From NCBI GenBank assembly GCA_965198235.1, contig OZ240248.1, positions 4,608,001 to 4,672,000 of the forward strand: a stretch of DNA of 64,000 nucleotides, read 5' to 3'. Source of the DNA: Candidatus Poribacteria bacterium. Lineage in GTDB: Bacteria > Poribacteria > WGA-4E > WGA-3G. Shown here piece by piece: positions 1 to 16,671 of this stretch. A model generated the notes under the pieces. It was not told where the DNA came from, made no database searches, and worked only from the letters and a program-made list of their open reading frames with translations. The translations under genes and the position numbers were made by a program. Position 1 is the stretch's first letter. Every line of letters begins with the position of its first letter.

Positions 1-130
1 AAAAGCAAGTGCTTCTCTATGTCAAGTCTCCGAATGGACAGGGTGGCGGGTATGTGACGATAAAGATTTCCACATCAGACAGATAATTAACAAGGTGGAC
101 CCACTATATTGTGTGTTCACGGATTAATGC

Positions 131-159
131 TTGACGGATAGTTGTTTTTGTGATATACT
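131..159 (+). promoter_or_regulatory. sigma70-type promoter TTGACG-17-TATACT
   Basis: Near-consensus -35/-10 with 17-nt spacer ~30 nt upstream of the dehydrogenase ORF. Confidence 0.7.
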
Positions 160-189
160 CCTCGAAAACAACTATCCTTTATTACATTA

Positions 190-1209
190 ATGAGGTTCAT
201 GTTGGAGATGAAGGGACAACGGGTTGTTTGGCCCGATCGCGCTAAAGTTGACGTTGAGACGTTTATGCTACCACCTATCGGAGATGATGACGTTCTTGTT
301 GCAACAGAATGCACACTCATCAGTCCCGGTACGGAACGCGCGTTTTTATTAGGGCTCCCGAATGCACAAGGGAGATACCCAACCCGTCCGGGTTATAGTA
401 ATATCGGCAGAGTGGTGGACGTTGGAAAGGCAGTCACTGATTGTAAGGTAGGTGATCGCGTCGCTTCAACACAGGGACATACCAGCCACTTTGTAACCTC
501 GCCAAGTCGCTTGCTAAGGATAGCTTCCGCCGATGTTCCAGCCGAAGAAGCGGTTTTCTTTAATCTCGGCGCGATTGCCCTGCAAGGTGTCCGCAAGGCG
601 CGAATTGAATTGGGAGAAGCGACACTGGTTTTGGGGCAGGGGCTTATCGGCTTGTCGGCGATGCAACTCTCTAAATTGAGTGGAGCCCTACCGCTTATTA
701 CTGCGGATCTCACTGATAGTCGTCTTGAACTCTCTAAAAGAGTGGGAGCAGACTACACCTTCAATCCAGAAGATGCTGATTTCTCCGAACAGTTAGGTGA
801 TGCCACCAAAGGCGATGGACCAGCAGTTGTTATTGAGGCAACTGGACACCCAGACGCAATCAGCACCGCTTTAGATGTTGCGGGACGGGGCGCGCGGGTC
901 GTGTTGCTGGCGAGTACCCGTGGGGAAACACCGAGTGTGAACTTCTATCGCGATGTGCATAAAAAAGGGCTCATTTTGTACGGTGCACACAATTCTATCC
1001 GCCCGCGTCAAGAGTCTTCACCAAATTTCTGGACGCTTGAAGAGGATAGTCTCTTGCTGCTATCGCTCATCACACAGAAACGGTTCAACGTTATTCCGTT
1101 GATTAGCCATCGCGTCCCCGGAGAAGATGCAGCAAAAGCATATCAACTCCTCATGGAGTGGAACCCCGGCTTACTCGGTGTTGTTCTTCAATGGAACGAC
1201 AGCATGTAG
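190..1209 (+). CDS. MDR-family zinc-binding alcohol dehydrogenase-like oxidoreductase
   Basis: ISPGTE, PGYSNIG, GQGLIG Rossmann motif, VVIEATG; start may be 199 or 208. Confidence 0.85.
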   Translation: MRFMLEMKGQRVVWPDRAKVDVETFMLPPIGDDDVLVATECTLISPGTERAFLLGLPNAQGRYPTRPGYSNIGRVVDVGKAVTDCKVGDRVASTQGHTSHFVTSPSRLLRIASADVPAEEAVFFNLGAIALQGVRKARIELGEATLVLGQGLIGLSAMQLSKLSGALPLITADLTDSRLELSKRVGADYTFNPEDADFSEQLGDATKGDGPAVVIEATGHPDAISTALDVAGRGARVVLLASTRGETPSVNFYRDVHKKGLILYGAHNSIRPRQESSPNFWTLEEDSLLLLSLITQKRFNVIPLISHRVPGEDAAKAYQLLMEWNPGLLGVVLQWNDSM

Positions 1210-1458
1210 ATTTTCTAACGATTGCTTCTGAGCTGCTGTGTTCTGCTGCTTCGCAGTGAGAATGCAGTATTCTAATCGTGAAAAAACTATTGATAACCCA
1301 GAAACGGTTCGACTTAACCAAAAACTACCCTTTTAATATACCAAAGCACGCAGCCTAAAACGAAGTGGAAGGGTTTTTGCTTGGGGGTTTCTTCAGATTT
1401 GCGGAAGGGAACGTGAAAGCCCAATCCACGCACCTTAACCGCAAGGAATAATTAAAAA

Positions 1459-3615
1459 ATGGCACGCGAATATCCAATTGAAAACGTGCGCAATATCGGC
1501 ATTGCAGCGCACATTGATGCTGGCAAAACAACCACGACTGAACGGATTCTTTTCTACACCGGTAAAAAGCATAAGATCGGGGCAGTGGATGATGGTACTG
1601 CTGAGATGGATTGGATGTTACAGGAACGAGAACGCGGTGTAACGATTACTGCTGCCGCGACGACCTGTTTCTGGCGAGAACATGCAATTCACCTTATTGA
1701 CACACCCGGACATGTCGATTTCACAGTGGAAGTGGAACGATCCTTGCGGGTTTTAGATGGTGCGATTGCCCTATTCTGTGCTGTCGGGGGGGTCGAGCCA
1801 CAGTCAGAGACGGTTTGGCATCAAGCCGAACGCTACGATGTACCACGCATCGTCTTCGTTAATAAGATGGATAGGGTTGGCGCAAATTTCACTCGCGTTC
1901 TGGAAATGATGCAGGAACAGTTAGGTGCCAACCCCCTACCTCTCCAATTGCCGATGGGTGAAGGTGCCGATTTTGTTGGTGTCATTGATCTCGTGACGCA
2001 GAAGGCGATGCGCTGGGACGCCACCGACCTCGGACAGACGTATGTGGAGGCAGAGATTCCACCTGAATTTCAAGATGAAGTGGCACAAGCACGGGAAGCC
2101 CTCTACGAGAGTGTTGCTGTCGAAGATGAAGTTTTGCTTGAAAAATATTTGGGTGGTGAAGAAATAACTCATGCCGAGTTACTAACGGTTATCCGCGCAG
2201 CTACGTTGCGAGGAAAACTCTTTCCCGTGCTTTGTGGAAGTTCTTTAAAGAATCAAGGCGTTCAACCTCTATTGGATGCGGTAATTGATTTTCTGCCATC
2301 CCCTGTTGACGTTCCTCCTATTGAAGGGACTGTATCACATCCCGCTTCTGGTGGTGAGCGTTCCAAACGCGCGAAAAATGCATCCGCAGAGCAGGATATA
2401 GTGACACGCACCGCAAATGATAATGCCCCGTTTTCGGCGTTGGCATTTAAAGTGGCAAACCATCCAACGGTGGACAAACTCGTATACTGTCGTATCTATT
2501 CTGGTGTGCTCAAGCGCGGGGAGGTCGTCTATAACGTCCGTTCCGAAAAACGGGAACGCATTAACCGTATCTTACAGATGCACGCCAATAAAGAGGCAGT
2601 CTGTGACGCAGCTTACGCCGGTGATATTGTTGCGCTCGTTGGACTTAAGGATACCAAGACCGGAGATACTGTTACTGATCCGAGAGAGCCTATTCTGTTA
2701 GAATCCATCACCTTCCCGGATCCAGTGATCTCAATTGCTATTGAACCTGAGCGCGCGAGCGATGCGGATGCCTTGGAGGAAACACTCGAAAAATTGATGG
2801 ACGAGGACCCAACCTTCACTGTGGGAATCGACAAAGAGACCGGACAACGGATTATCTCTGGTATGGGTGAACTCCATTTAGAGGTTCTCACAGACCGCAT
2901 GATACGCGAATTCGGGGTCAACGCTCGGGTAAGCAAACTGCAGGTAGCGTATCGTGAAACTATCAGTACGCTTGCAGAGGCACGCGGGACACATATCCAT
3001 AAAACAGATGAAGAAGGTATATACGGTGATGTACTGTTAACAGTTGAACCATTAGCGCGCGGTGAAGGATTTCAGTTTGAGGATAACACAGACGAAACGC
3101 AAATTCTGCGGCAGTACGTCCCGTTTATCGAGAAGGCGTTGGAAGGTGCTATGGGGACAGGTCCCCGCATCGGATATCCGATGCAGGACGTAAAGGTTAC
3201 GCTCACGGGTGGCTCCTACCATCCAACGGATTCTTCGGAAGTAGCGTTTGAAGCGGCAGCAGTCTTGGCGTTTGAAAATGCGACAAGAAAGGCGAATCCT
3301 GTGTTGTTAGAACCAATTATGCGGATGCATATTACTGTCTCTGATGAGCATGTTGGTAAAGTCATTGGTGACCTGAATTCACGTCGGGCACAGATTAATG
3401 AGAGCACAACCCAAGATGCATCCGATACAAGACATCTGTCGCAATTGACTCAAAACGTCATCAATGCCTTTATACCGCTTTCAGAGACGTTTCAGTACAC
3501 AACGCGGCTTCGATCAATGACCCAGGGACGTGGGGCATTTACATTGGAATTTTCACATTATGAAGTCGTGCCGTCGTCTCTCGCCCCGGATCAGAATCGT
3601 GTCAGTTCGGCTTAG
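1459..3615 (+). CDS. fusA: elongation factor G (paralog outside the str operon)
   Basis: [54 protein letters not shown]. Confidence 0.95.
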
Positions 3616-3620
3616 CGTGT

Positions 3621-4802
3621 TCAATGTCCGTATGCTTTCATCACCTTTTGCAGCTCCGCCAACGGAATCGCGTACATCGTTCTGCCGTTGCGCCCAGTGG
3701 TTGTAGTTGCCATTGTCATGGAATTGACGATAGCCTCCTCTGTGGCTTCAATAACTGCTTGAAAGAGTGAATTTAGCCGTCCGTTTACGAGCATCTGGAT
3801 TTGGAATGTGCCGGTTTCGGTCCGACTTGGAAAAATGTTCGCGGTGGAAAACGCGATGACGAATTCACCGCTACCGTCAGTACTCGGTGTTCCCGTGCGA
3901 GCGAGCCCATGCGTAGCACGAATCGCTAACTGTTTCAATTGGCGATGTGTCAACGGGGCATCCGTCGCGATAACAATAATGAACGAACCATCTCTACGGG
4001 GTTTCGGTGGGGATCCGATAATTTCCTTACCGACAGGGACACCATCAATTCGCAGTTGCGAACGACGACCCCCGTTGGAATTAACAAGGACACCCACTGT
4101 CCATCCACCACGTTCTTCAGGTAGGACGCGGGAGGCGGTGCCGATACCGGCTTTGAAACCGTAGCATCGCATGCCAGTGCCGCCGCCAACGCATCCTTCG
4201 GTTACGGGACCACCGGTGGCGTTCTCAATCGCTTCAATCGCATGCTGTGCTGTGACATGTAGTCCGCTGATGTCGTTCAAACCACCATCGTAGCACTCCG
4301 CTACAATTGGTAGCACGATGTTGTTGTCTGGATACCGTTTCACAATGTAACGCACAACGCCGTCATGGACTGCCCCAACACTGAGCGTATTTGTGAGCAA
4401 AATGGGAGATTCAATCCACCCGGCTTGATTGATACGGGCGATGCCGGTTGCTTCACCATTGCCGTGAATGATATGTGCCGCGCCAAATAGGCGTGCTGTC
4501 CAAATATCATCACTTGGAAGGATAGCAGTAACACCGGTACGAATTGAATCGCCTTCGTTCAGGGTAACGTGTCCGACTTTCACACCCTCTACATCAGTGA
4601 TGGCATTGTGTGTGCCGGTTGGAATGGTACCGATCTGGATACCGATGTCGCGTCCCCGCGCACGATGGTTTAGATCTGCGCCTTCAGCATCGGTGCTACA
4701 TAGAGGATACGTCCAAAGAGCACCAGTGAGAACGACGAAGAACAGCGTTTTTGCGTAGTGCAAGGATCTGAGACCTTGCATCTTTTTAAGAAGTTTCTGC
4801 AT
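3621..4802 (-). CDS. P1/S58 family peptidase (DmpA-like L-aminopeptidase/D-esterase) with signal peptide
   Basis: NAITDVEGVKVGH, TGVTAILP, EGCVGGGTGM, KAGIGTASR, GSFIIVIATDAP, DGSGEFVIAFST. Confidence 0.9.
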   Translation of the reverse strand: MQKLLKKMQGLRSLHYAKTLFFVVLTGALWTYPLCSTDAEGADLNHRARGRDIGIQIGTIPTGTHNAITDVEGVKVGHVTLNEGDSIRTGVTAILPSDDIWTARLFGAAHIIHGNGEATGIARINQAGWIESPILLTNTLSVGAVHDGVVRYIVKRYPDNNIVLPIVAECYDGGLNDISGLHVTAQHAIEAIENATGGPVTEGCVGGGTGMRCYGFKAGIGTASRVLPEERGGWTVGVLVNSNGGRRSQLRIDGVPVGKEIIGSPPKPRRDGSFIIVIATDAPLTHRQLKQLAIRATHGLARTGTPSTDGSGEFVIAFSTANIFPSRTETGTFQIQMLVNGRLNSLFQAVIEATEEAIVNSMTMATTTTGRNGRTMYAIPLAELQKVMKAYGH

Positions 4803-5334
4803 TTTCTAATTGATTCCTATAGATTCTGCGAATGTGGTTAAAAATAGCGATATATGTTGGTAATCGGTAATCGGGATAACTCCACTCCCAGGGTTGGAAC
4901 GTTTTGCGATAGAAGCGGAGTGTGATTTCGGCATAAATACCGTCGCTGAGGTAGATACGATGGGCATGGTCTTTCGTTGACGCAAGCACCAATTTTGCCA
5001 AGCAGATGTAACCTGCGTCTAAATTGACACGCCGCGCGTCTCCTTCGGACTTTTTTATAGCAAAAGCTTGCTCCACGTTATTTGTGAACAACTTCATTTC
5101 TGCCAGTGCACCGGCATCGATAAGTCTTTCAAAACTGATAAATTGTCGTTGGATGTCTGGTCCCATTTCAGCCTCGTAGTAGGCTGTGCTCGTGAAAGGC
5201 ATCAATTCACTTGTGTAATCAATGGGTCCAAGGCGATGTGTCAGTTCAGTATAAACGGTTGGCAGGAGGGTGGGTTCCGCTATTAGCACGCCGATGATTG
5301 CTTTAACCGATAGCGGTGTTGTGATGGCTCCCAT
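4786..5334 (-). CDS. DUF4416 family protein
   Basis: YYEAEMG, RRVNLDAGYI, LVLASTKDHAHRIYL, WSYPDY; start moved to ATG at 5334 (GGAGG RBS upstream). Confidence 0.8.
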   Translation of the reverse strand: MGAITTPLSVKAIIGVLIAEPTLLPTVYTELTHRLGPIDYTSELMPFTSTAYYEAEMGPDIQRQFISFERLIDAGALAEMKLFTNNVEQAFAIKKSEGDARRVNLDAGYICLAKLVLASTKDHAHRIYLSDGIYAEITLRFYRKTFQPWEWSYPDYRLPTYIAIFNHIRRIYRNQLENAETS

Positions 5335-5550
5335 GTTATCCTCCGTAGTCCAAAATCCATCGTACAACCTTAAAATCCACGTCCTGATCCTCGATAGTGT
5401 GAACTTCAAGTTCATCAAGTATAGCGAATTGCGTTTAACACATCAACGCTTCATTTATTACTATAAAATTCTATAAAAATTGCGGTTTTGGGGATCAGTC
5501 TCCTACATTATTGCATTAAATTGAAAAAAAGTGGTTTTTTTATTTTTTTC

Positions 5551-5579
5551 TTGACATTTTACGAAATATAATGTATAAT
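5551..5579 (+). promoter_or_regulatory. perfect consensus sigma70 promoter TTGACA-17-TATAAT for rpoBC, with upstream A/T tracts (UP-element-like)
   Basis: Exact consensus hexamers at 5551-5556 and 5574-5579. Confidence 0.85.
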
Positions 5580-5694
5580 ATTCTGTTATGCTATGTCACC
5601 ATATTAAGACGGAAAAAGCAGTTGAGGAAGCAGGCTTTTTCAAAAGTCTATTTGTAAACTGCGTAACCACCGCCAAGTAGGGAGACTCCATTCA

Positions 5695-8600
5695 GTGAAC
5701 AAAAAGCCCATCCAGAAAAATGTGAGGATGTCTTTTGCCAAAACGCAGGTTCGGACCCCACTCCCGAACCTCATAGAGACCCAAAAACTTGCATATGATG
5801 CCTTCTTACAACAAGATATCCCACCTAATGAACGTCCGGATACTGGCCTCCAAGCGGTGTTTAAGGAAGTATTTCCGATTCGCGATTTTTCGGAGGTTAA
5901 CAGTCTTGAATTTGTCAATTACAGCCTTGGCACACCGAAATATACTCTCCAAGAATGTGTTGCGCGCGGTGTAACATATCAAGTATCCCTTACTGCCCGT
6001 ATTATGCTTGTCCTGCGTGAAGCAGACTCGGATGCAGATGAACCTCACGTTGTGGATATCCGAGAGTCCGATGTATATCTCGGCGAAGTTCCTTTAATGA
6101 CTGAAAATGGCAGCTTCATTGTCAATGGTAGTGAACGTGTGATCGTGAGCCAGCTGCACCGTTCGCCGGGTGTTATTTTTCTTGAAAAGGCATTGCCGAC
6201 GGGACGGCGTACACCGACTGCCCAAATTATTCCCTATCGAGGGGCTTGGGTCGAATTTGAAATAGACACCAAAGATCAGATTTATGTGCGCATTGACAAG
6301 CGTAGAAAACTGCCGGCTACTGTGCTTCTTCGTGCACTCGGTTGGGAGTCGGACGCAGATATCCTGAAGCTTTACGCCAAGACGGAACGACTTGTACTTG
6401 CCGGGTGGCAGGTTACGCATGTAGAAGGACCAGCAAAGAAAATCACATCTGGTGATTTGTTGGATGCTGCGGACTTTCGACAAGCCAGCAGAGACTATCC
6501 TGACCTTGAGGTAGAGAAGAGTTATCGTGTTATAGAAGTAACTGATAAGGACTGCCCACTGGAGATTGGACAAGCACTCACATATAAGAATCGGACGAGC
6601 CTTCGCAGAAAATGGAAGGGCTTTGAAACTGAGCTTCTTCGGCGTGTTGTTGACACCCACAATAGTGGGTGTGAGCTCATTCCCGAACAAGTGCTAACAA
6701 ATTCGGAATACGAAGAGGGGCGTGCCCGCTACGGAAGCAAAGCATTCGCAGCTGAACAGATTTTGTCCCAAGACAGCCAGGAAAGTGTCGGTAGGGTCTG
6801 CGCTGAAGACGTTATCAACCCAGAAACTGGCGAAGTGCTCCTCACAGCGAATACGCTGCTCACCGAAACGGAATTGGAACGTCTCAGTGAGACTGGTGTT
6901 GAGGCACTTACAGTACTGGATGAGGAAGATTGCCAGCACATCCGATTTTTGCGTAATACATTGGAGCGCGACCGACAGGCGGACTATGAGGAACCCTATA
7001 CTTTACAAGATGCCGCACTGCTTGAGATTTTCCGCACGCTGAGACCCGGAGATCCTGCTGGTATAGAGAACGCTCGTAAACACCTTTCATGGTTGCTCTT
7101 TGACCCGCACCGATACGATTTAGGTGTAGTTGGACGGTACAAACTGAATCGAAAATTCCAGAATATTCCCGTTTATGGTGAGCCACCTGAAGAGACTTTG
7201 CGCACGCTCCGTCCCGAAGATATTGCCGCTACGGTAGATTATCTTCTTAAAGTCCACAACGGGATTGCTCCGAAAGACGATCTTGATCATCTCGGTAATC
7301 GCCGCGTACGTGTTATCGGTGAGTTACTCGAAAACCAGTTCCGAATGGGTTTATTCCAGATTCGCAGAACTACGCGCGAACGCTTGAGTACCAACAATGA
7401 TATTGCGAAGGTCGTCCCGTCTTCGCTCATAAATCCGAAACCGCTGATGATGGCACTCCGGGAATTTTTTGGATCGAACCAGCTGTCGCAGTTTATGCAA
7501 CAGATTAATCCGTTGGATGAATTGACGCATAAGCGTCGTATCTCAGCAATTGGTCCAGGTGGGCTTCACCGAGATAGAGCAACGGCAGCCGTTCGGGATG
7601 TACATCGAACGCACTATGGACGTGTCTGCCCCTTGGAGACACCTGAGGGACCATCCATCGGTCTTATCGTTTCTTTGGCGTGTTATGGACGGATAAACCC
7701 TTATGGTTTTATAGAGACCCCTTATCATAAGGTTGAGGACGGTTCGGTGTTGGATCCAGTGGAATATCTGACAGCAGATAGTGAGGATACTGCTTACATT
7801 GCTGCAAAGGCGATCTCGAACGATGCCGAACAAGCTGGAAATGGTGAGGCATCGGGGTTACAAACCCCTCCTACAGAGCAGATGCTGCCTGTACGCAGTG
7901 GGGAGGATGTGCTGTCGCTTCCGATGGAAAAAGTGGACTATATCGGTGTTTCTCCACAGCAGATAGTCGGCATTTCTGCTGCGTTGGTTCCGTTTCTGGA
8001 ACATGAGGACGCAAACCGGGCATTGATGGGTGCTAATCACCAACGTCAGGCTGTGCCGCTTGTCCGTCCAGAAGCACCGCTCGTCGGAACGGGGATGGAA
8101 GCCCCGGCGGCACTGTATTCAGGTGCACTCATCACCGCTAAGCGAGCTGGTACCGTCACAAGTGTTTCCGCCGATGAGATCCTCATATATACTGGCGAAA
8201 CACTTCATCATGACAAGGGTGAGAATACGTTCAGCGAAATGGGCTACGATGTTTACAAACTCCAAACATTCAAACGGAGTAATAGCGGCACCTGTATTCA
8301 CCAGCACCCCATCGTTGCAGTGGGCGATAAAGTTGAAGCCGGACAGGTTATTGTGGATGGCACCTCTACAGAGAGCGGTGAACTCGCTCTTGGGCGGAAT
8401 GTGCTGTGCGCTTATATGCCGTGGGGCGGTCACAATTACGAGGACTCTATCCTGATAAGTGAGACACTCATCAAGGAAGATATCTTCACCTCTATCCACA
8501 TTGAAGAATTTGAAGTGGAGGCACGTGAGACGAAAGTGGGCCCGGAGGAAATCACCCGTGATATTCCGAACGTTAGCGAGCAGCGGCTTACACAACTTGA

Positions 8601-10938
8601 TGAAGAGGGTATTATTCACGTTGGGAGCGTTGTGGGTGCAGGAAGCATCCTCGTCGGAAAAATTACACCGAAAGGTGAAAGTGAATATGGTCCGGAAGAG
8701 AAGCTCCTACGCGCAATCTTTGGTGAAAAAGTCAAAGAAGTAAGGGATGCTTCGACTTATGTACGCCCCGGAGTTGAGGGTGTCGTTATTGATGTAAAAG
8801 TATTCTCCCGTAAGCCGGATGCTGCCTCCCGTCGTGGAGGTTGGGCACAAGGCGACTCAGGGTTATCGATGGCTGACAATTTGCGATATGAATCGAAACG
8901 CAAAGAGATTGAAGAGACTTCGCGTGAGCAGATCGCTTCTATCCGTCGCCGAAAAATCGAAGAGATTCGCAAAACACTCATAGGATGTGAACTTGCTGAT
9001 TCGCTTTACACGGTTAATGGAACTAAAGGTGATACTGACGCTAAACTCTTCGCTAATGCTGGTGATACCCTGACAGCTGAGGTTTTGGACGCTTATATTT
9101 CCGGTTTCACTGCAGATGAGTACCACTTGGTAACCGAAGATACAAACTCTGAAGTTTTTACCGCTGAAGCGTGTTATAGGGTAACAGACGTACCTGAATC
9201 AATTCCTACTATTGTGGTCTATCCTTCGGATTCCTCAGCAGTGCAAGGATACCTTAGCGAAGTGTGCAAACCGATTTTGGGAAGTACTGAGCCATTCTTG
9301 CAGGAAACGGAATCTGTAGATGGGGACTTAGAAGATGCTGATGTTGTGCTTCAGGGTTACGATAACAGTGTGATTGCTATTGCTGTGTGTGAAGACGCTC
9401 ACACTGACGATGAGGATGCTGAAAACGGGTATCATTCCGAGCGTCTGATGGAGATGCTTGCTGCAACAGGAGCACGATTTGGTGTATTGGTACCTGACGG
9501 TGAGCCAGAACCCGATAACTGGGATTTCTATGAACTCGTAGATTTGACCAGCGACTCGCCTCCGACACAAGACTCAGAAGCACGAGTCGCTGATCAAACT
9601 GTGTTGCAACTGTGTGAGCGTTCTGAGTTTGAGACTGGAATTACCACACAACTTGAAGCAACTGGATGCCCTGTCGTTGAGACACAGAGGCTCAACGAGG
9701 AAGAATGGACGAACTTCAGTCAGACTTATCCGGGTTTACAAGCCGAGTTATTTTGGCAAATTAAGGAAGTTTTCGACCCCGCGTGCCCCTTGACCGAAGG
9801 ACAAGAACTCTCCGATACCGACTATCTGCGAATGTCCAGAGATTTTCCTGCACGTCCTATAGCAGCGGGTCAACGACTGGCTGCGGATGAACTGGCATCA
9901 TTTACCCGGACCATCAAGGATTTGAAAATCGACAGCGTCTGGCACATTACCGTTGTTTTTGACCCAGAGTGTACACTGTCTGCTGGAGAATATGTTTCTG
10001 ATGCCGACTATCAAGAGGCACGTAAATCATGTAGCTTGACTTTCTCAGACATCCATGTTACCAATGCCAATGCCAGAGAGCATATTCAGCGTGTTGAAGA
10101 GATGGCGCAAGGCAGGATAACCACTTACACTGAGGAGAAAGAACGAGCACTTCAGCAGTTAGAGATGGGTGATGAGCTAAAACCAGGAGTCATCAAACGC
10201 GTCAAAGTCTATGTCGCAAGCAAGCGTCCGATTTCCGTCGGCGATAAGATGGCGGGCCGCTACGGCAACAAAGGTGTTGTTGCCAAAATTTTGCCTGCTG
10301 AGGATATGCCCTATCTGCCGGATGGTACCCCGGTTGAGTTGGTACTGAACCCGTTAGGTGTGCCCTCTCGAATGAACGTCGGTCAAATCTTGGAAATTCA
10401 TCTCGGATGGGCGTGCCATGAACTCGGTATCCAAGTGGAATCCCCTGTATTTGATGGTGCAACAGAGGGAGAAATCTTTGAAATGCTTGGTAAGACCGAG
10501 CTCCCAGAACGCAGTAAACAGACCGGTAAGAGCATTCTCTTTGATGGTAGAACCGGTGAGGCATTTGCCCAGGAAGTAACGGTGGGTTACGTCTATTTCC
10601 TCAAGCTGAACCACCTTGTTGCTGATAAGATGCATGCTCGCTCAACGGGACCTTATTCTCTTGTTACACAGCAACCGTTGGGAGGCAAGGCACAACACGG
10701 GGGCCAACGGCTCGGTGAGATGGAGGTCTGGGCATTGGAGGCTTATGGTGCAGCCCATACGCTCCAAGAAATGCTCACGCTCAAATCAGATGACGTTCTT
10801 GGTAGAAGAGAGATTTACGAGTCGGTTGTGAAAGGGTTAAATCCTGAACCGCCCGGTACACCGGAATCATTTAAAGTCTTGGTCCGCGAACTCCAAACCC
10901 TTGGACTTCATGTATCCCTCGATAAGGATGAAGAATAG
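5695..10938 (+). CDS. rpoB: DNA-directed RNA polymerase subunit beta with large lineage-specific insertions (1747 aa)
   Basis: [67 protein letters not shown]; GTG start with AGGGAG RBS. Confidence 0.98.
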   Translation: [1747 protein letters not shown]

Positions 10939-10971: not shown

Positions 10972-13900
10972 ATGAACACGGCATTTGACAGCATCTCCAT
11001 AAAGATAGCCTCGCCCGATCAGATTAAAGACGAGTCGAAGCAGACCAGTTGCAAACGTCGGAAGCCCGCCCAAGAAGCGGATGCACCTTTTATCTGCCCC
11101 GAGAAAGGGACATGTAGTTGTGGCGAGGTCAAGAAGGCGGAGACTATTAACTACCGCTCCTTTCGTCCTGAAGCGGAGGGCCTCTTCTGTGAGGCTATCT
11201 TTGGACCACAAAAGGACTGGGAGTGTAACTGTGGTAAGTATAAACGGATTAAACATAAAGGGATGATATGTGACCGCTGTGGTGTTGAAATCACACAACA
11301 GCGTGTTCGCAGAGATCGACTCGGATATATTCAGCTTGCCGCACCTGTCTCTCATATATGGTACTTCAAAGGAATTCCTTCTCGCATCGGCACCTTCTGT
11401 GAACTCTCCTCACGTGATGTTGAGCGTGTGCTCTATTTTGAGGGGTTTATCGTCGTTGAAGTGACTGACCCAGATTGTCCTCTTGAACGTGGGCAGGTGT
11501 TAACCGAGATTGAGTACATAGAACACAGCAACAAGTACGGGGATGGATTTCGGGCTGGCACCGGTGCAGAAGTCATTCGCGAATTACTCAGCGATATTGA
11601 TCTTGAGGCGGAGATAGAGAAGTTAACCACAGAGTTGGAGGAAACAACGAGCCATCAGAAAAAGCTGAAGATCGCCAAACAACTGAAACAGATAGCTGAC
11701 TTTGCAGAAGTTGGTCAGCGGCCCGAGTGGATGATTTTGGATGTTATTCCTGTCATCCCACCAGATTTACGACCTCTTGTTCCGCTTGAAGGTGGACGTT
11801 TTGCTACCAGCGACCTGAACGACCTGTATCGCCGTGTTATCAATCGGAACAACCGACTGCGTAAATTGATACAGCTCCGTTCCCCCGAAGTCATTCTCCG
11901 TAACGAGAAACGGATGTTACAGGAGGCAGTCGACGCATTCTTCGACAATGGACGGCACGGTAGGCGTGTCACCGGTCCGGGTAACCGTCCGCTCAAATCC
12001 CTTGCTGATGTTCTCAAAGGTAAGATTGGGAGGTTCCGTCAGAATCTGCTCGGTAAGCGGGTTGACTACTCTGGACGGAGTGTCATCGTTGTTGGACCTG
12101 AATTGGGGTTGCATCAGTGTGGGATCCCCAAACGGATGGCTGTAGAGTTGTTTAAGCCGTTCATTATTGAGCGACTTCAAGCGTATGGGTATACGCAGAC
12201 AATTAAGCGTGCGAAGCATATTGCTGAACACGTTGATTCCGATTCTCCTGTATGGGAAGTCGTAGAGGAAGTGATTGCGGATCATCCAGTTTTACTCAAT
12301 CGCCCGCCAACTTTGCACCGGCTCGGCATTCAGGCATTTTTGCCTGTCTTGGTAGAGGGCAAGTCGATCCGGATTCCGCCACTCGTCTGTAAAGCGTTTA
12401 ACGCTGATTTTGACGGTGACCAGATGGCAGTCCATGTACCACTCACCGTGGAAGCCCAAGCTGAAGCGAAACTCCTAATGCTCAGCAGTCATAACATTCT
12501 CAAGCCCTCACATGGCGATCCTATCGCTGTTCCGGAGCTTGACATGGTACTCGGACCCAGTTTCCTGACAAAGGTGTTGCCAGAGCACGCTGCGGATGCG
12601 ACACTTCTGCATGATGCTTATACAACAAGCGATCCTTCTGCTTTTGATGCCCTCCGTGAAAAGCCATGGTTCCATCGTCGCTACGCACACCCAGAAGAGG
12701 TGCTTACCGCTCATGCAGCGGGTCAACTTAAACTGCACGACAGCATCCAGCTTTTCCGTGCATCTAATGGGGATGATGGGAAAACCACGGAACCAATTCT
12801 AACGACAGTCGGCAGGGTAATATTTAACCAAGTACTGCCGTCTGGTTTAGAGTGGGAGGATGCAAATTCTCAGCAGCGTATTTCGTTCTTCAATGCTGAA
12901 GCTGGAGGCAGAGAACTGTCTAACCTGATCCACCGTTGTTTCAACGAATTGGGCACACGTGCCACGACTGAAGTGCTTGAGAAAGTACAGAAGCTTGCTT
13001 TCGAGTATGCAACGCTGAGTGGTGTTTCGCCCGGTATCATGGATTACATTACTCCTGAGAATCGCGATGCTTTGGTGAGCAAAGCACAGGCAGAAATTGA
13101 CACCCTCCTTGGCAATGTCACGGCGACCGAGCGCGAAGAACATGAAAACGAGCAGATTCGTATCTGGTTGGATGCGATTACAGCCGTTGAGAACACAATG
13201 TTCTCGATTTTGCCCCAGTTAGAGACCTCTCTCGTTGAGCGCGGTGACCCTCGAAAGATTCATCCGTATGTTGATCCCGATGGGTTAGAGGTACGCGACA
13301 GAACAGTAGAAGGCTTCAGTCCGGTACATATCATGGCAGATAGTGGCGCACGAGCACGGAAGAATCCATTTATGCAAATCAGTGCTGTTATCGGGTTGAA
13401 AGCCAAGCAGAGCGGTGAAATTCTCATTCCGCCGATTACCACCTCTTATCGTGATGGTCTGGACGTACTTGACTACTTCAACTCTACTTATGGATCCCGT
13501 AAGGGTCTCGTGGATACGGCGATGAAAACCGCCGCGTCCGGTTACCTCACTCGAAAGCTTGTGGATGTGGCTCAAGATGTTCGTGTCACTACTGAAGACT
13601 GCAGCACGCTTAATAGCATCCAAAAGTTCGCGACAGAGGGGGGCGACCTTGCTTTTAAGATTAGCGGACGCACTGCTGCCGAGGATATCCTCAATCCAGA
13701 GAGCGGGGGCCTGCTTGTTCCATCGGGTACTGTCATATCGGCGCAGATGGCGGACCAGATTGACGCACTTGGCATAAGAGTGGCGAAAGTGCGCTCTGTG
13801 CTCACGTGCCAAACCGATGATGGAGTCTGCGCAAAATGCTACGGTAACGATTTGACGACGAATGATCTTGTCAATGTTGGCGAAGCTGTGGGCATCATTG

Positions 13901-16671
13901 CTGCACAGTCTATCGGTGAACCGGGTACGCAACTTACTATGCGGACGTTCCACACCGGGGGTGCTGTTGAAGATGTTTCAGAAGCGCGTCAGCGCAGAAT
14001 TTTGTCTAAAGTCAGTGGCACCGTGTATTTCCGAGATTTCCAACCCAGTCGGACGGTCAAAGAAGAGGGCGAGCTCTGGGTCGCAACCGAAAACAGAACG
14101 AATCTTGATGAACCTGCCTACAAGGTTATACGAGTTAACAATCCTCACTGTCCATTGCGAGAGCATGAATTACTCAGTGAGAAGCAGTACATGGAAAACG
14201 CGGAGCGCTATAAAGGTTTTGATACAAAGACGTGGCAGTATCAAGTCACAGCTGTCTTGGATAGCGACTGCGACTTGAATGTGGGGGGGCGACTGTCTCA
14301 GGCAGAATACGTCAAGGCACAGATGGAATATAGCTTCCAGCGATTTGTGACCCCAAAATACCGAGTGGCGCGGGTGCAACATCCTAAGCTTCCATTGACT
14401 GTTGGCACCGAGCTCACTGAAGAAGAGATAGAGCAATTGAGAACTGATATCCGGCAAGGGATTAACGGAGAATGGCATTACTTAGATGCAGAAACAGGCG
14501 AGCGTATTGCTATTGAAAGCCTTACAGCAGTTTCAGGTAATGCTTCTTCTGAGCGTCCGAACGGTTCCTCTGATAATCCCGATACTGCGAATGCGTCTGG
14601 GCGAGATGCGAGTTTTAATCGTGTGTATTGTATAACCGAAATAGATAAGCAGACAAGCAAAGACTTCGGATTTAAGGTAGGAGACGAAGTTGCACCAGAA
14701 GAAATTGCTCCGTTGCTTAATCCATTTGAGATGGAGATAAAGCCCGTTTACGTTGTACATACAGAGGTTGCTGAATTTACAGTTAGTCAGACATTAACGT
14801 CCCGTGAGTACGAGGACGCTCGCACAGAGTATCAGCAACTTGAACGCGCATTTAAAGTTGAAAAACAGGATGATGAACGACACTATGTGACAGCTGTGTA
14901 TCATCCCGAATGTCCTTTTGAAGTGGGTGAAGAATTGAGCGAGGCAGCCTTAACCCGTGCACGCAAGCGATTTCCAGGTTTTGATGCACCGCCCCTACGA
15001 CACCGTGTAACGCAGGTGCATCATCTGGACTGCAGTCTCAAACCGAGAGATCTACTTACTGAGAGTGAGAAAAAACAATTCGATGAGAGTTACCCTGGAT
15101 TCGTCACTTCTCAAAGTAAGAGCACCGCGGGTGGCTTTGCAGGAGAACGGTTATACCGTGTTACATCGGTCAATCATCCTGACTGCCCATTAGAAGTTGA
15201 TGGTCTCTTGACGCAAAAGGAATCATCTGCAAACCGCCGACACTACAAGGGTTTTGAAGTTGCACGTCATTATGAAGTGACACACATTGAAGATGAAACG
15301 ACAGCGTTAAGTGTCGGTCAGCGTCTCACCGAGATCGAGTATAAAGCACTCCGCAAGACGGATGCTTCGTTACCTGAGAAAGTCAAAGGACTCTATCATG
15401 TCATTAGCGTCCATCACCCTGAATTGAACCTGGAGGTTGGTGCTGAATTGAGTGAAGACGAGTATAAGACGTCCCATCGCCAGTTCAAAGGATTTGATGT
15501 TGAGCTGGTTTACCAGGTAACTGTGGATACGCGGGATGTTGATGAACTACTTGAGGTTGGGACTATTCTACCCTCGAAGGAATACCGGGCTCTTGAGAAA
15601 GCAAACTTGCGGGTGACCCATACCGTCACCGAGGTTCATCATCCGAATTGCAAGTACGCTGTCGGCGACGAATTGTCCGAGGAAGTATACAATGAGGCAG
15701 CGAGACGGTATCCCGGATTCGAGATCGATGAATTGTCATTGCGGATGCGTATTGAGGTAGAAACATCGGATGGGAGTCGGGTGCCGCATGTCATTCCTAC
15801 GGGTTACTCCTTCTCTTTGACAGAGGGTGATAGCATTCAGAAGGGAGAAACGCTGGCAGAGCTCTATGAGAGGACAGCGAACCGTGACATTGTTGCTGGT
15901 ATTCCGCGTGTCACTGAATTGTTTGAAGCGCGCCGCCCGAAACGCGGTGAAGCCGCAGAAATCGCTGAGATTGAAGGTTACGTCCAATCTGCAGGCACGA
16001 AGTCAGGTATTCCTACCTACCGCATTGAGCACGAGGGATATCAGAGTCGTCTCTATCAAATACCTGATGAGAAGCGACGCGTCGCTGAAGGCGATTGGGT
16101 GAATGCCGGTGAACCCCTCACCGATGGTTATCTCAATCCGCACGATATTTTGAGTATCGGACGTACGACTATTGAAGGTGTATCGGTTGAGGGTGAAGAG
16201 GCGGTCTGGTCATATCTCGTCGATGAAGTCCAGAAAGTCTACGGCAAGGGGACTATCAACGATAAACACGTTGAGGCAATCGTCCGACAGATGTTGACTA
16301 AGATTCGTATCACCGAGCCGGGCGACACAAACTTCTACCCGAACGATGAAGTGCAACGCAAGCAATTTGAACGCGTTAACAGTGAGATTGAGGAAAAAGG
16401 TGGAACGCCTGCCTCGGGTGAACCGATTCTCCAGAGCATAAGTAAAGCCTCCTTGAGTACAGATAGCTTCATCTCAGCTGCATCCTTCCAGCAGACGACG
16501 AAGGTGCTAACGGATGCTGCTGTCGGTGGGCAAACCGATAGACTCTTTGGGTTGAAGGAAAACGTTATTCTCGGTAGACTCATACCAGCGGGAAGTGGAT
16601 TCTCCAGTTTCCAGGACTTAGAGATATCCTCCATTGAACCAGAAATAGGCGAAGCTGGTGATGACGATTAA
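10972..16671 (+). CDS. rpoC: DNA-directed RNA polymerase subunit beta' with a 641-aa trigger-loop insertion (1899 aa)
   Basis: CNCGKYK/CDRC Zn ribbon, LLGKRVDYSGRSVI, catalytic NADFDGDQMAVH, GEPGTQLTMRTFHTGG, SAASFQQT, GLKENVILGRLIPAG. Confidence 0.98.
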   Translation: MNTAFDSISIKIASPDQIKDESKQTSCKRRKPAQEADAPFICPEKGTCSCGEVKKAETINYRSFRPEAEGLFCEAIFGPQKDWECNCGKYKRIKHKGMICDRCGVEITQQRVRRDRLGYIQLAAPVSHIWYFKGIPSRIGTFCELSSRDVERVLYFEGFIVVEVTDPDCPLERGQVLTEIEYIEHSNKYGDGFRAGTGAEVIRELLSDIDLEAEIEKLTTELEETTSHQKKLKIAKQLKQIADFAEVGQRPEWMILDVIPVIPPDLRPLVPLEGGRFATSDLNDLYRRVINRNNRLRKLIQLRSPEVILRNEKRMLQEAVDAFFDNGRHGRRVTGPGNRPLKSLADVLKGKIGRFRQNLLGKRVDYSGRSVIVVGPELGLHQCGIPKRMAVELFKPFIIERLQAYGYTQTIKRAKHIAEHVDSDSPVWEVVEEVIADHPVLLNRPPTLHRLGIQAFLPVLVEGKSIRIPPLVCKAFNADFDGDQMAVHVPLTVEAQAEAKLLMLSSHNILKPSHGDPIAVPELDMVLGPSFLTKVLPEHAADATLLHDAYTTSDPSAFDALREKPWFHRRYAHPEEVLTAHAAGQLKLHDSIQLFRASNGDDGKTTEPILTTVGRVIFNQVLPSGLEWEDANSQQRISFFNAEAGGRELSNLIHRCFNELGTRATTEVLEKVQKLAFEYATLSGVSPGIMDYITPENRDALVSKAQAEIDTLLGNVTATEREEHENEQIRIWLDAITAVENTMFSILPQLETSLVERGDPRKIHPYVDPDGLEVRDRTVEGFSPVHIMADSGARARKNPFMQISAVIGLKAKQSGEILIPPITTSYRDGLDVLDYFNSTYGSRKGLVDTAMKTAASGYLTRKLVDVAQDVRVTTEDCSTLNSIQKFATEGGDLAFKISGRTAAEDILNPESGGLLVPSGTVISAQMADQIDALGIRVAKVRSVLTCQTDDGVCAKCYGNDLTTNDLVNVGEAVGIIAAQSIGEPGTQLTMRTFHTGGAVEDVSEARQRRILSKVSGTVYFRDFQPSRTVKEEGELWVATENRTNLDEPAYKVIRVNNPHCPLREHELLSEKQYMENAERYKGFDTKTWQYQVTAVLDSDCDLNVGGRLSQAEYVKAQMEYSFQRFVTPKYRVARVQHPKLPLTVGTELTEEEIEQLRTDIRQGINGEWHYLDAETGERIAIESLTAVSGNASSERPNGSSDNPDTANASGRDASFNRVYCITEIDKQTSKDFGFKVGDEVAPEEIAPLLNPFEMEIKPVYVVHTEVAEFTVSQTLTSREYEDARTEYQQLERAFKVEKQDDERHYVTAVYHPECPFEVGEELSEAALTRARKRFPGFDAPPLRHRVTQVHHLDCSLKPRDLLTESEKKQFDESYPGFVTSQSKSTAGGFAGERLYRVTSVNHPDCPLEVDGLLTQKESSANRRHYKGFEVARHYEVTHIEDETTALSVGQRLTEIEYKALRKTDASLPEKVKGLYHVISVHHPELNLEVGAELSEDEYKTSHRQFKGFDVELVYQVTVDTRDVDELLEVGTILPSKEYRALEKANLRVTHTVTEVHHPNCKYAVGDELSEEVYNEAARRYPGFEIDELSLRMRIEVETSDGSRVPHVIPTGYSFSLTEGDSIQKGETLAELYERTANRDIVAGIPRVTELFEARRPKRGEAAEIAEIEGYVQSAGTKSGIPTYRIEHEGYQSRLYQIPDEKRRVAEGDWVNAGEPLTDGYLNPHDILSIGRTTIEGVSVEGEEAVWSYLVDEVQKVYGKGTINDKHVEAIVRQMLTKIRITEPGDTNFYPNDEVQRKQFERVNSEIEEKGGTPASGEPILQSISKASLSTDSFISAASFQQTTKVLTDAAVGGQTDRLFGLKENVILGRLIPAGSGFSSFQDLEISSIEPEIGEAGDDD

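Follow-up and report, generated by a model that had tools for sequence, protein, structure and literature searches.

Introduction

The closest described counterparts of the element reported here are insertions in the trigger loop of the beta' subunit of bacterial RNA polymerase. SI3 of Escherichia coli (beta'In6, or beta' G-G' insert) has 188-193 aa, consists of two sandwich-barrel hybrid motifs (SBHMs), forms an acidic surface domain (Opalka 2010, PMC2939025) and modulates pausing and elongation (PMC11077087; PMC4227799). Judged from its flanks, a 641-aa segment of beta' from a Candidatus Poribacteria bacterium (assembly GCA_965198235.1) uses the same insertion point. It is encoded by rpoC on contig OZ240248.1, within positions 4,608,001 to 4,672,000 of the forward strand. 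This stretch of 64,000 nt is called the window below; nucleotide coordinates refer to it, and residue numbers refer to the insertion or to the protein named.

A second described system is the cyanobacterial and plastid Si3. It occupies the same site, comprises 645 aa in S. elongatus ('largest known', PMC10802570) and consists of nine nested SBHM/HABAS domains, with a split first SBHM carrying the rest (PMC10802570; PMC11515920). As the loop folds, this insertion swings; it builds an arch together with sigma and is located around the rim helix, at which Gre and DksA would bind (PMC10120043; PMC10802570). Qayyum et al. linked the lack of Gre/DksA in cyanobacteria to Si3. Statements attributed to cited papers, here and below, hold for the parts of these sources that were covered.

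SI3-class insertions are described as composed of SBHM/HABAS domains only, two to five in number and nine in cyanobacteria (bioRxiv 2021.01.27.428476; PMC11515920). Other small domains are known elsewhere in the enzyme. Alvarez-Carreno et al. 2024 grouped beta'-bD2 and beta'-bD7 (the latter at E. coli beta' 1255-1298 according to their Table 2) as 'small left claw' (sLC, CATH 3.30.60.280); rare extra sLC, BEAN (CATH 3.90.105.10) and HABAS insertions lie in bD2, bD4, bD5 and bD7, and those in the trigger loop (beta'-uD5) are listed as HABAS only (PMC11515920). A further unit, 'beta-beta' module 2' (BBM2), builds the beta-i4 and beta-i5 insertions of the beta subunit: E. coli beta-i4 and Firmicute beta-i5 have two each, and 'one to six tandem repeats' were predicted for beta-i4 (PMC2939025; bioRxiv 2022.01.17.476619). 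For beta' too, two BBM2 insertions were proposed by Iyer et al., according to a review (PMC1586193).

Taken as a whole, we consider it likely that the poribacterial segment is a lineage-specific insertion at the SI3 site, in which an SBHM base carries an array of beta'-bD2-type modules and which acts in a manner similar to SI3. No published account of this insertion was found in the literature; the word 'Poribacteria' occurs 0 times in the covered part of PMC11515920, and the search extended neither to Table S4 nor to Iyer et al. 2004 and Lane & Darst 2010.

Position of the insertion in beta'

The beta' subunit is encoded as one unsplit polypeptide by a single frame. Because PF00623 has a single match in a profile search across the whole 5.17-Mb genome, this is the sole rpoC of the genome. 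The insertion is preceded by TMRTFHTGG and followed by DIVAGIPRV. Identical motifs bracket the 193-aa SI3 in beta' of E. coli K-12, where the counterpart of the N-terminal arm motif ends at residue 939, immediately ahead of SI3. The segment between them lies between ...TFHxGG and D[IV]xxG[IL]PR, as SI3-class insertions do, and these flanking sequences identify it as a trigger-loop insertion at the position of E. coli SI3 (beta'In6).

A split SBHM at the base of the insertion

The insertion was modeled with AlphaFold2 from an alignment of 51 homologues (mean predicted local distance difference test [pLDDT] 77.8, predicted template modeling score [pTM] 0.37). The modules were predicted with local confidence, their mutual arrangement was not, and low-confidence stretches were found at residues 26-49 of the insertion and in a low-complexity linker (189-216).

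Structural comparison of the full model by VIA-align aligned 993 chains, 238 with Z >= 5 and 7 with Z >= 8. Single SBHM/HABAS domains were aligned over 57-81 residues spanning 8..636 of the insertion, that is, with both of its ends jointly, at Z 7.0-8.7. The best match was Thermus beta' 246-309 (Z 8.7), and others were the small domain of cytochrome f (Z 7.3-8.5), E. coli beta' 1151-1214 (Z 7.2-8.3), domain 2 of T. maritima NusG (Z 7.9) and the T. elongatus Si3 crystal structure (8emb_D over 437..979, Z 8.0). E. coli SI3 crystals were matched as well, namely 4iqz_E (Z 8.1) and 2auk_A 83-189 (Z 7.4, root-mean-square deviation [rmsd] 3.1 A, 81 residues aligned, 24% identity).

BLASTP points to the same domain. 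Compared with the 198-aa SI3 of another family in the order, residues 13-35 of the insertion aligned with 109-131 (E 0.019) and residues 596-639 with 151-195 (E 2e-5); there was also a weak alignment to E. coli SI3 88-110. In SI3, the second SBHM begins and ends with the aligned segments. Model and sequence comparison together thus identify the base of the insertion as a single SBHM/HABAS domain, the counterpart of the second of the two SBHMs that make up SI3 in other families of the order (f2 and f3). The first SBHM of SI3 is gone from the insertion.

Broader searches gave no hits: Foldseek with the model of all 641 aa (0 matches at E <= 0.001), phmmer with the insertion against PDB sequences (0 matches at E <= 1) and the ESM Atlas with insertion residues 51-590 (no usable match).

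The nested repeat modules

A loop of the remaining SBHM hosts about a dozen modules of some 40 aa. A clear module is predicted to consist of a long strand, a loop with a ...H-P-x-C-P-L... turn, a short strand and a helix of about 10 residues. In a leave-one-out control, all 9 clear modules were recovered by a hidden Markov model (HMM) built from the other 8, with 19-59 bits; the best score among 1000 shuffled modules was 6.5 bits.

The layout (Table 1) bears out most of what a sequence-only reading of the window had proposed. The translation gives exactly the 641 aa stated there between the two flanking motifs. The view that the ends are halves of a single split SBHM is supported, because VIA-align and BLASTP agree on it. 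The structure prediction named there as a check yields strand-strand-helix units of about 40 aa and not ordinary SBHMs, in line with the proposal that the building block differs from that of the SBHM arrays in E. coli and cyanobacteria. The count of about 12 modules given there holds in part: ten are supported by sequence, because the 9 clear modules and the degenerate unit M5d exceed the shuffles; the eleventh (M11d) is suggested by its predicted secondary-structure pattern alone; and the twelfth element (insertion 218-257) is atypical. That the insertion has the anatomy described here, an SBHM base with a nested module array, we regard as highly probable.

Relationship of the modules to beta'-bD2

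About 1,100 module instances from 120 insertions were used to build an HMM, which matched the beta'-bD2 element of the same beta' subunit (residues 161-196, E 7.3e-12). When the beta' subunits of three other families were searched with it, the N-terminal bD2 was the sole match in all three (1.5e-11, 5.5e-11 and 6.8e-5), and there was a weak match to E. coli beta' 153-173. Profile comparison by hhalign, with 949 distinct module sequences against an alignment of bD2 from E. coli and five other-family beta' sequences, gave a probability of 98.4% (E 5.8e-15, 38 columns). A profile of the 9 clear modules likewise picked beta' chains at 152-173 among PDB sequences, although with E 0.077 and 0.46. 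The top PDB matches of that profile, engineered OspA repeats, were rejected as spurious, as they share only '...ELSEK...'.

A model of three modules (pLDDT 71) was used for fold searches. All Foldseek matches listed were RNA polymerase entries, with probability up to 0.99 and E 0.35-1.3, and most of them covered 39-42 columns with rmsd 1.6-2.7 A and 26-33% identity. VIA-align matched it at Z 4.2-5.0 to E. coli beta' 1257-1311, Thermus 1371-1428 and M. tuberculosis 1159-1214; the E. coli segment coincides with beta'-bD7, the sLC paralogue of bD2. A wide VIA search with the same model gave a best Z of 4.9 and none with Z >= 5.

From the sequence profiles, we conclude that the modules are paralogues of the polymerase's own beta'-bD2 (sLC, CATH 3.30.60.280), neither SBHMs nor a new fold. 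We take the repeated module to be BBM2-type as well, presuming that sLC and BBM2 denote the same unit; by position, this assignment is suggested by the modules in the organism's own beta subunit (beta 239-347), which occupy the beta-i4 site.

Modules in the beta subunit and origin of the array

The beta subunit is oversized, with 1747 aa compared to 1342 in E. coli. In BLASTP, its alignment with E. coli beta is interrupted between 227/224 and 366/294, and in the extra segment the module HMM found three modules (239-274, 6.9e-6; 277-313, 9.8e-12; 317-347, 1.7e-6). Further modules occur in a second insertion at the beta-i9 site (Table 1).

Because this module type is also multiplied in beta, duplication within rpoBC is the most likely source of the array, as far as can be inferred from sequence. 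The pattern of nearest modules fits this origin: M6 and M12 are mutually nearest, the nearest relative of M8 is the module at beta 277-313, and M1 is nearest to M8 and next to beta'-bD2.

One relative's beta subunit (P0191, 2352 aa) has a precomputed Pfam match to PF13588 (HSDR_N_2, the nuclease-like N-terminal domain of type I restriction R subunits), and nuclease-like domains may thus be nested in beta also.

Table 1. Features of rpoC and rpoB in the window, with the evidence for each
Feature	Coordinates	Strand	Evidence
rpoB (beta), 1747 aa	5695-10938	+	long open frame
extra segment of beta at the E. coli beta-i4 site (beta 228-365, ~138 residues), 3 modules	6376..6789	+	BLASTP, module HMM
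440-aa insert of beta at the beta-i9 site, with further modules (beta 1323-1444) and a long acidic stretch	8812-10131	+	module HMM
rpoC (beta'), 1899 aa	10972..16671	+	open frame, translation, Pfam Rpb1 domains 1-5
conserved beta'-bD2/sLC element (beta' 157-197, ...FIVVEVTDPDCPLERGQVLTEIEY...), putative parental type of the repeated module	11440..11562	+	module HMM, hhalign
trigger-loop N-terminal arm (...GEPGTQLTMRTFHTGG)	13909..13962	+	sequence read directly; Met/Arg/His positions of the E. coli loop retained
trigger-loop insertion, whole, 641 aa; net charge -35	13963..15885	+	translation
split SBHM/HABAS, predicted N-terminal half (insertion 8-40)	13984..14082	+	predicted strands 8-14, 19-23, 33-35, 38-40; VIA-align; BLASTP
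modules M1-M3 (insertion 51-170), 3 clear, ~40-aa strand-strand-helix	14113..14472	+	HMM 31.5-40.9 bits; pLDDT blocks 76-91
predicted beta-hairpin and low-complexity, low-confidence linker (insertion 171-217; SGNASSERPNGSSDNPDTANASGRDAS)	14473..14613	+	pLDDT <50 at 189-216
degenerate units M4d (insertion 218-257, atypical) and M5d (258-304)	14614..14874	+	HMM -0.3 and 15.3 bits; predicted strand/helix elements
modules M6-M10 (insertion 305-514), 5 clear	14875..15504	+	HMM 19.2-59.1 bits
degenerate unit M11d (insertion 515-551)	15505..15615	+	HMM 5.2 bits, within shuffles; predicted strand/strand/helix as in clear modules
module M12 (insertion 552-590)	15616..15732	+	HMM 49.0 bits
split SBHM/HABAS, predicted C-terminal half (insertion 591-637; ...HVIPTGYSFSLTEGDSIQKGETLAEL)	15733..15873	+	predicted strands 595-600, 606-611, 630-637; BLASTP; VIA-align
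trigger-loop C-terminal arm (DIVAGIPRVTELFEAR)	15886..15933	+	sequence read directly

Distribution, selection and transcripts

The insertion is a shared trait of one Poribacteria-type family. A genome search found it in 18/18 congeners and in none of 12 genomes from three other families of the order. Across the family it is present in 108/112 genomes and in all six genera, down to about 40% identity and within open frames of 1868-2511 aa; the 4 genomes without a match are 81-90% complete. Phylum-wide, 105/109 other genomes of the family carry it, compared to 0/58 in eight other families. The closest named homologues over the insertion region (66-85% identity) are labeled Candidatus Poribacteria, and one bears a sponge's name.

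Other families have trigger-loop insertions of a different make. Five of their genomes were inspected, and four carry SI3-like insertions of 198, 193, 203 and 212 aa; the fifth has 369 aa with a helical filling. None contains such modules. Because the other families of the order carry insertions of 193-369 aa without modules, an origin independent of the cyanobacterial insertion, as the sequence-only reading had suggested, is supported.

A search of 1.84 billion representative proteins with the insertion gave only 21 matches at E <= 0.001; apart from one TPR protein (6e-4), the matches inspected were beta and beta' proteins or pieces of them. A second lineage with such an insertion was not found in this search, a single-sequence search being weak for 40-aa modules.

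Both flanking motifs are present in 119/121 beta' sequences, with insertions of 625-699 aa in 109 of them and 786-1053 aa in 10. The number of modules is 10-16 among the 12 relatives examined. Longer insertions have up to 16 detectable modules by segmental duplication (P0053) or contain a PF18741 domain, which in P0125 occupies the gap after the third module.

PF18741 (REase_MTES_1575, restriction-endonuclease-like) was observed in frame inside the insertion, after module 1 or 3, in P0091 (residues 1158-1259) and P0125 (residues 1328-1421), and also in P0028, P0046 and P0068. The insertion in the window has no PF18741 but a disordered, low-complexity linker at the site after module 3.

The insertion is under purifying selection. 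The ratio of nonsynonymous to synonymous substitution rates (dN/dS) against three congeners is 0.18-0.22 for the insertion and 0.09-0.12 for about 760 flanking core codons. Mean identity across 96 homologues is 70% for the insertion and 88% for the core.

In metatranscriptome contigs from four runs of a single study, 13500-16400 is covered with neither joints nor indels (30, 28, 28 and 28 of 30 bins), and the 5' junction of the insertion is bridged by records of three metatranscriptome runs. At the 3' junction, no contig extends 31 nt to both sides.

Gene surroundings and other observations

Upstream of rpoB are genes for a zinc-type dehydrogenase and an EF-G-type GTPase, and the opposite strand there encodes a DUF4416 protein and an S58 peptidase. 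Within 5.6 kb ahead of rpoB (window 1-5694), rplJ and rplL, the ribosomal protein genes that usually precede it, are not found. A fumarase gene follows rpoC. Within rpoC, an antisense frame of 222 aa without a family assignment is probably spurious. At its N-terminus, beta' carries an additional Cys-containing stretch (SCKRRKPAQEADAPFICPEKGTCSCGEV; window 11047-11136, residues ~26-55) that precedes CNCGK...CDRCG, the usual zinc-binding element.

In each of three genomes from other families, the catalytic region of beta' has a weak second match (G026:C1:3970989-3971456, G022:C2:1843545-1843970 and G020:C1:3674731-3675210). These matches show 36-40% identity to residues ~361-533 and lie in frames of 1042-1096 aa. 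These could represent a beta'-like paralogue.

Comparison with described insertions

Compared to E. coli SI3, with which it shares the insertion point and an acidic character (net charge -35), the insertion is 3.3 times longer. The second SBHM of SI3 aligns with its base in sequence and predicted structure (2auk_A 83-189), whereas the first SBHM is missing and the remaining one holds about 540 aa of nested non-SBHM modules. It thus contains an SI3-related SBHM/HABAS domain, as seen by VIA-align and BLASTP, but having just one it departs from the SBHM/HABAS-only composition of the SI3 class.

The resemblance to cyanobacterial Si3 lies in the site, in the nested design and in size, the sequence-only reading having rightly called the insertion one of cyanobacterial dimensions (641 aa versus 645 aa; PMC10802570). 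A further parallel is that Gre and DksA were not found in the poribacterial genome. The filling is different, with sLC/BBM2-type modules instead of SBHMs, and beta' is one polypeptide here while that of cyanobacteria is split in two. The two insertions would be of independent origin, and with up to 1053 aa those of poribacterial relatives exceed the 645 aa given as the largest known (PMC10802570).

The modules share their length of about 40 aa with beta'-bD2 and beta'-bD7, with profile homology to the former and weak fold matches to the region of the latter. While each of bD2 and bD7 is one conserved element in known beta' subunits, located in the clamp and C-terminal regions (PMC11515920), 10-12 copies are found here in the trigger-loop insertion. 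A common design also links the array to the BBM2 repeats of beta, since in both a small beta/alpha module is repeated in tandem as a lineage-specific surface insertion, and three modules that belong to one sequence family with those of the array occupy the beta-i4 site in the organism's own beta. The host site differs, being the catalytic trigger loop of beta' instead of the beta lobe, and no direct match to the crystallized E. coli beta-i4 pair was obtained.

Possible function and alternative explanations

We see about an even chance that the insertion acts as an SI3-like mechanical modulator with extended reach. By its position and by analogy with SI3 and Si3, an acidic surface domain of about 70 kDa would be mechanically tied to both arms of the trigger loop. 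It would have to move whenever the loop folds or unfolds, and nucleotide addition and pausing would thereby be tuned. The insertion is also long enough that it could extend along the polymerase surface or cover the rim of the secondary channel, in an organism whose genome yielded no Gre or DksA. Being acidic, it is unlikely to bind nucleic acid.

Factors that act in the secondary channel were searched for. GreA_N was found in 0/31 genomes of the order (9/14 controls were positive), the C-terminal domain of GreA (PF01272) in 1/5 genomes overall but not in the organism's own, and the DksA zinc finger in 0/5 genomes, including its own. The sole PF01272 match (locus L012, G022:C2:100423-103635) lies in a 1346-aa frame of another family, which is far longer than a Gre factor.

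Several points weigh against a modulator built and acting as outlined. The mechanism rests on analogy of position, and Gre/DksA were likewise not found in families with an ordinary small SI3. The insertion evolves about twice as fast as the core and varies between 10 and 16 modules, and both observations would fit a loosely constrained appendage. The orientation of the modules is uncertain in the model (pTM 0.37), so that the reach and shape of the array cannot be stated. The three-module model is moderately confident and its fold matches are all weak (Foldseek E >= 0.35; VIA-align Z <= 5.0), and the fold assignment therefore leans on the sequence profiles. No match of the modules to the BBM2 pair of E. 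coli beta-i4 at beta 225-343 was obtained with the HMM, hhalign, Foldseek or VIA-align: the module HMM found nothing in E. coli beta at an independent E-value (iE) below 5 except 1008-1018 (1.0), hhalign of the module profile against single sequences gave probabilities of 0.5% for beta-i4 (and 0.1% for beta'-bD7), and no beta chain is among the matches listed by Foldseek and VIA-align for the three-module model. Finally, contigs from RNA libraries may contain DNA, and the overlap at the 3' junction is only 29-30 nt.

An extended version of the modulator would assign a joint role to the module copies at all three sites (10-16 in the beta' trigger loop, and those at beta-i4 and beta-i9). They would form an outer scaffold or arch that couples the trigger loop to the beta lobe and to the rim of the secondary channel, takes over the regulation exerted elsewhere by Gre/DksA and serves as a docking or insertion platform for nuclease-like domains. 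We consider this unlikely. The absence of Gre/DksA is not tied to the large insertion, because it is order-wide, and a complex prediction for the insertion with beta 215-440 (0.43, 0.01 and 0.00 in its runs) is not evidence either way.

Similarly unlikely, in our view, is a tolerated expansion without a specific role, in which a permissive SI3 loop gathered in-frame duplications of modules and selection merely keeps the array folded and harmless. The variable number of modules, the segmental duplication in P0053, the nuclease-like domains at two points, the 119 insertion lengths that span 625-1053 aa and the faster divergence from the core would all be expected. Persistence in nearly the entire family, across six genera and down to about 40% identity with frames open throughout, speaks against it, as do the low dN/dS and the many residues that are invariant across 52 sequences. 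Moreover, work on SI3 (PMC11077087) suggests that some 70 kDa on the catalytic mobile element of the sole beta' cannot be mechanically neutral.

Metal binding by the recurring H-P-x-C, which the sequence-only reading had thought possible, has little in its favor. The motif, alone or paired between adjacent modules, would ligate zinc or another metal, resulting in a zinc-finger-like string. It is true that C63, C103, H140, H314/C317, H354/C357, H405/C408, H485 and H560 are invariant or nearly so in 52 sequences, and that VIA-align matched module 1 to B-box, ZZ and RING domains (Z 2.4-4.5; TRIM28 B-box1 with Z 4.5, rmsd 2.1 and 36 residues aligned). However, Z values below 5 are within the stated noise of the tool. 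His and Cys are both present in only 4/12 modules (M6, M7, M8 and M12), with C563 kept in 38/52 sequences, and a module has at most two fixed ligands (one invariant His, one Cys) instead of the 3-4 of a zinc-finger-like repeat. The other His positions alternate with Tyr in the 52 sequences and therefore behave as aromatic positions, not as ligands. The P-x-C-P-L turn is already found in the single-copy beta'-bD2 of 4/5 other-family beta' subunits inspected (the E. coli loop is shorter and has no Cys), and the motif seems to derive from the parental module instead of having evolved as a ligand set. A metal-binding repeat is thus considerably less probable than either of the two preceding explanations.

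An ordinary SBHM array like cyanobacterial Si3, with modules too diverged to be recognized by eye, is hardly credible. The base is indeed an SBHM by our model, and its nesting in split form resembles Si3 (8emb_D). SBHMs are all-beta and longer, however, while the clear modules are predicted to end in a helix; their profile matches beta'-bD2, and the fold matches of the three-module model go to bD2/bD7-type elements and not to SI3.

Intein junctions follow the rule Cys/Ser at the start and His-Asn plus Cys/Ser/Thr at the end. With junctions that read G/AVED... and ...TANR/D (the slash marks the boundary; Ala at the start, Asn-Arg and then Asp at the end), no Hint or intein family in beta' by Pfam at E <= 0.01, a frame that is intact in more than 100 genomes under purifying selection, and metatranscriptome contigs that run on without joints or indels and bridge the 5' junction, the chance that the segment is an intein, an intron-like element or an assembly artefact and is lacking from the mature enzyme is negligible; no observation in its favor was found.

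Significance

If the lineage-specific insertion with its bD2-type modules is read correctly, the trigger-loop site can carry a long array of a non-SBHM module recruited from the polymerase itself, while the insertions described for this site are all SBHM/HABAS (bioRxiv 2021.01.27.428476; PMC11515920). It would be a second, independent case of a very large trigger-loop insertion in a lineage where secondary-channel factors were not found. For the enzyme, the insertion is a natural experiment on the mass that a catalytic loop can drag, and for the uncultivated phylum of sponge symbionts, it provides a clean marker at the family level.

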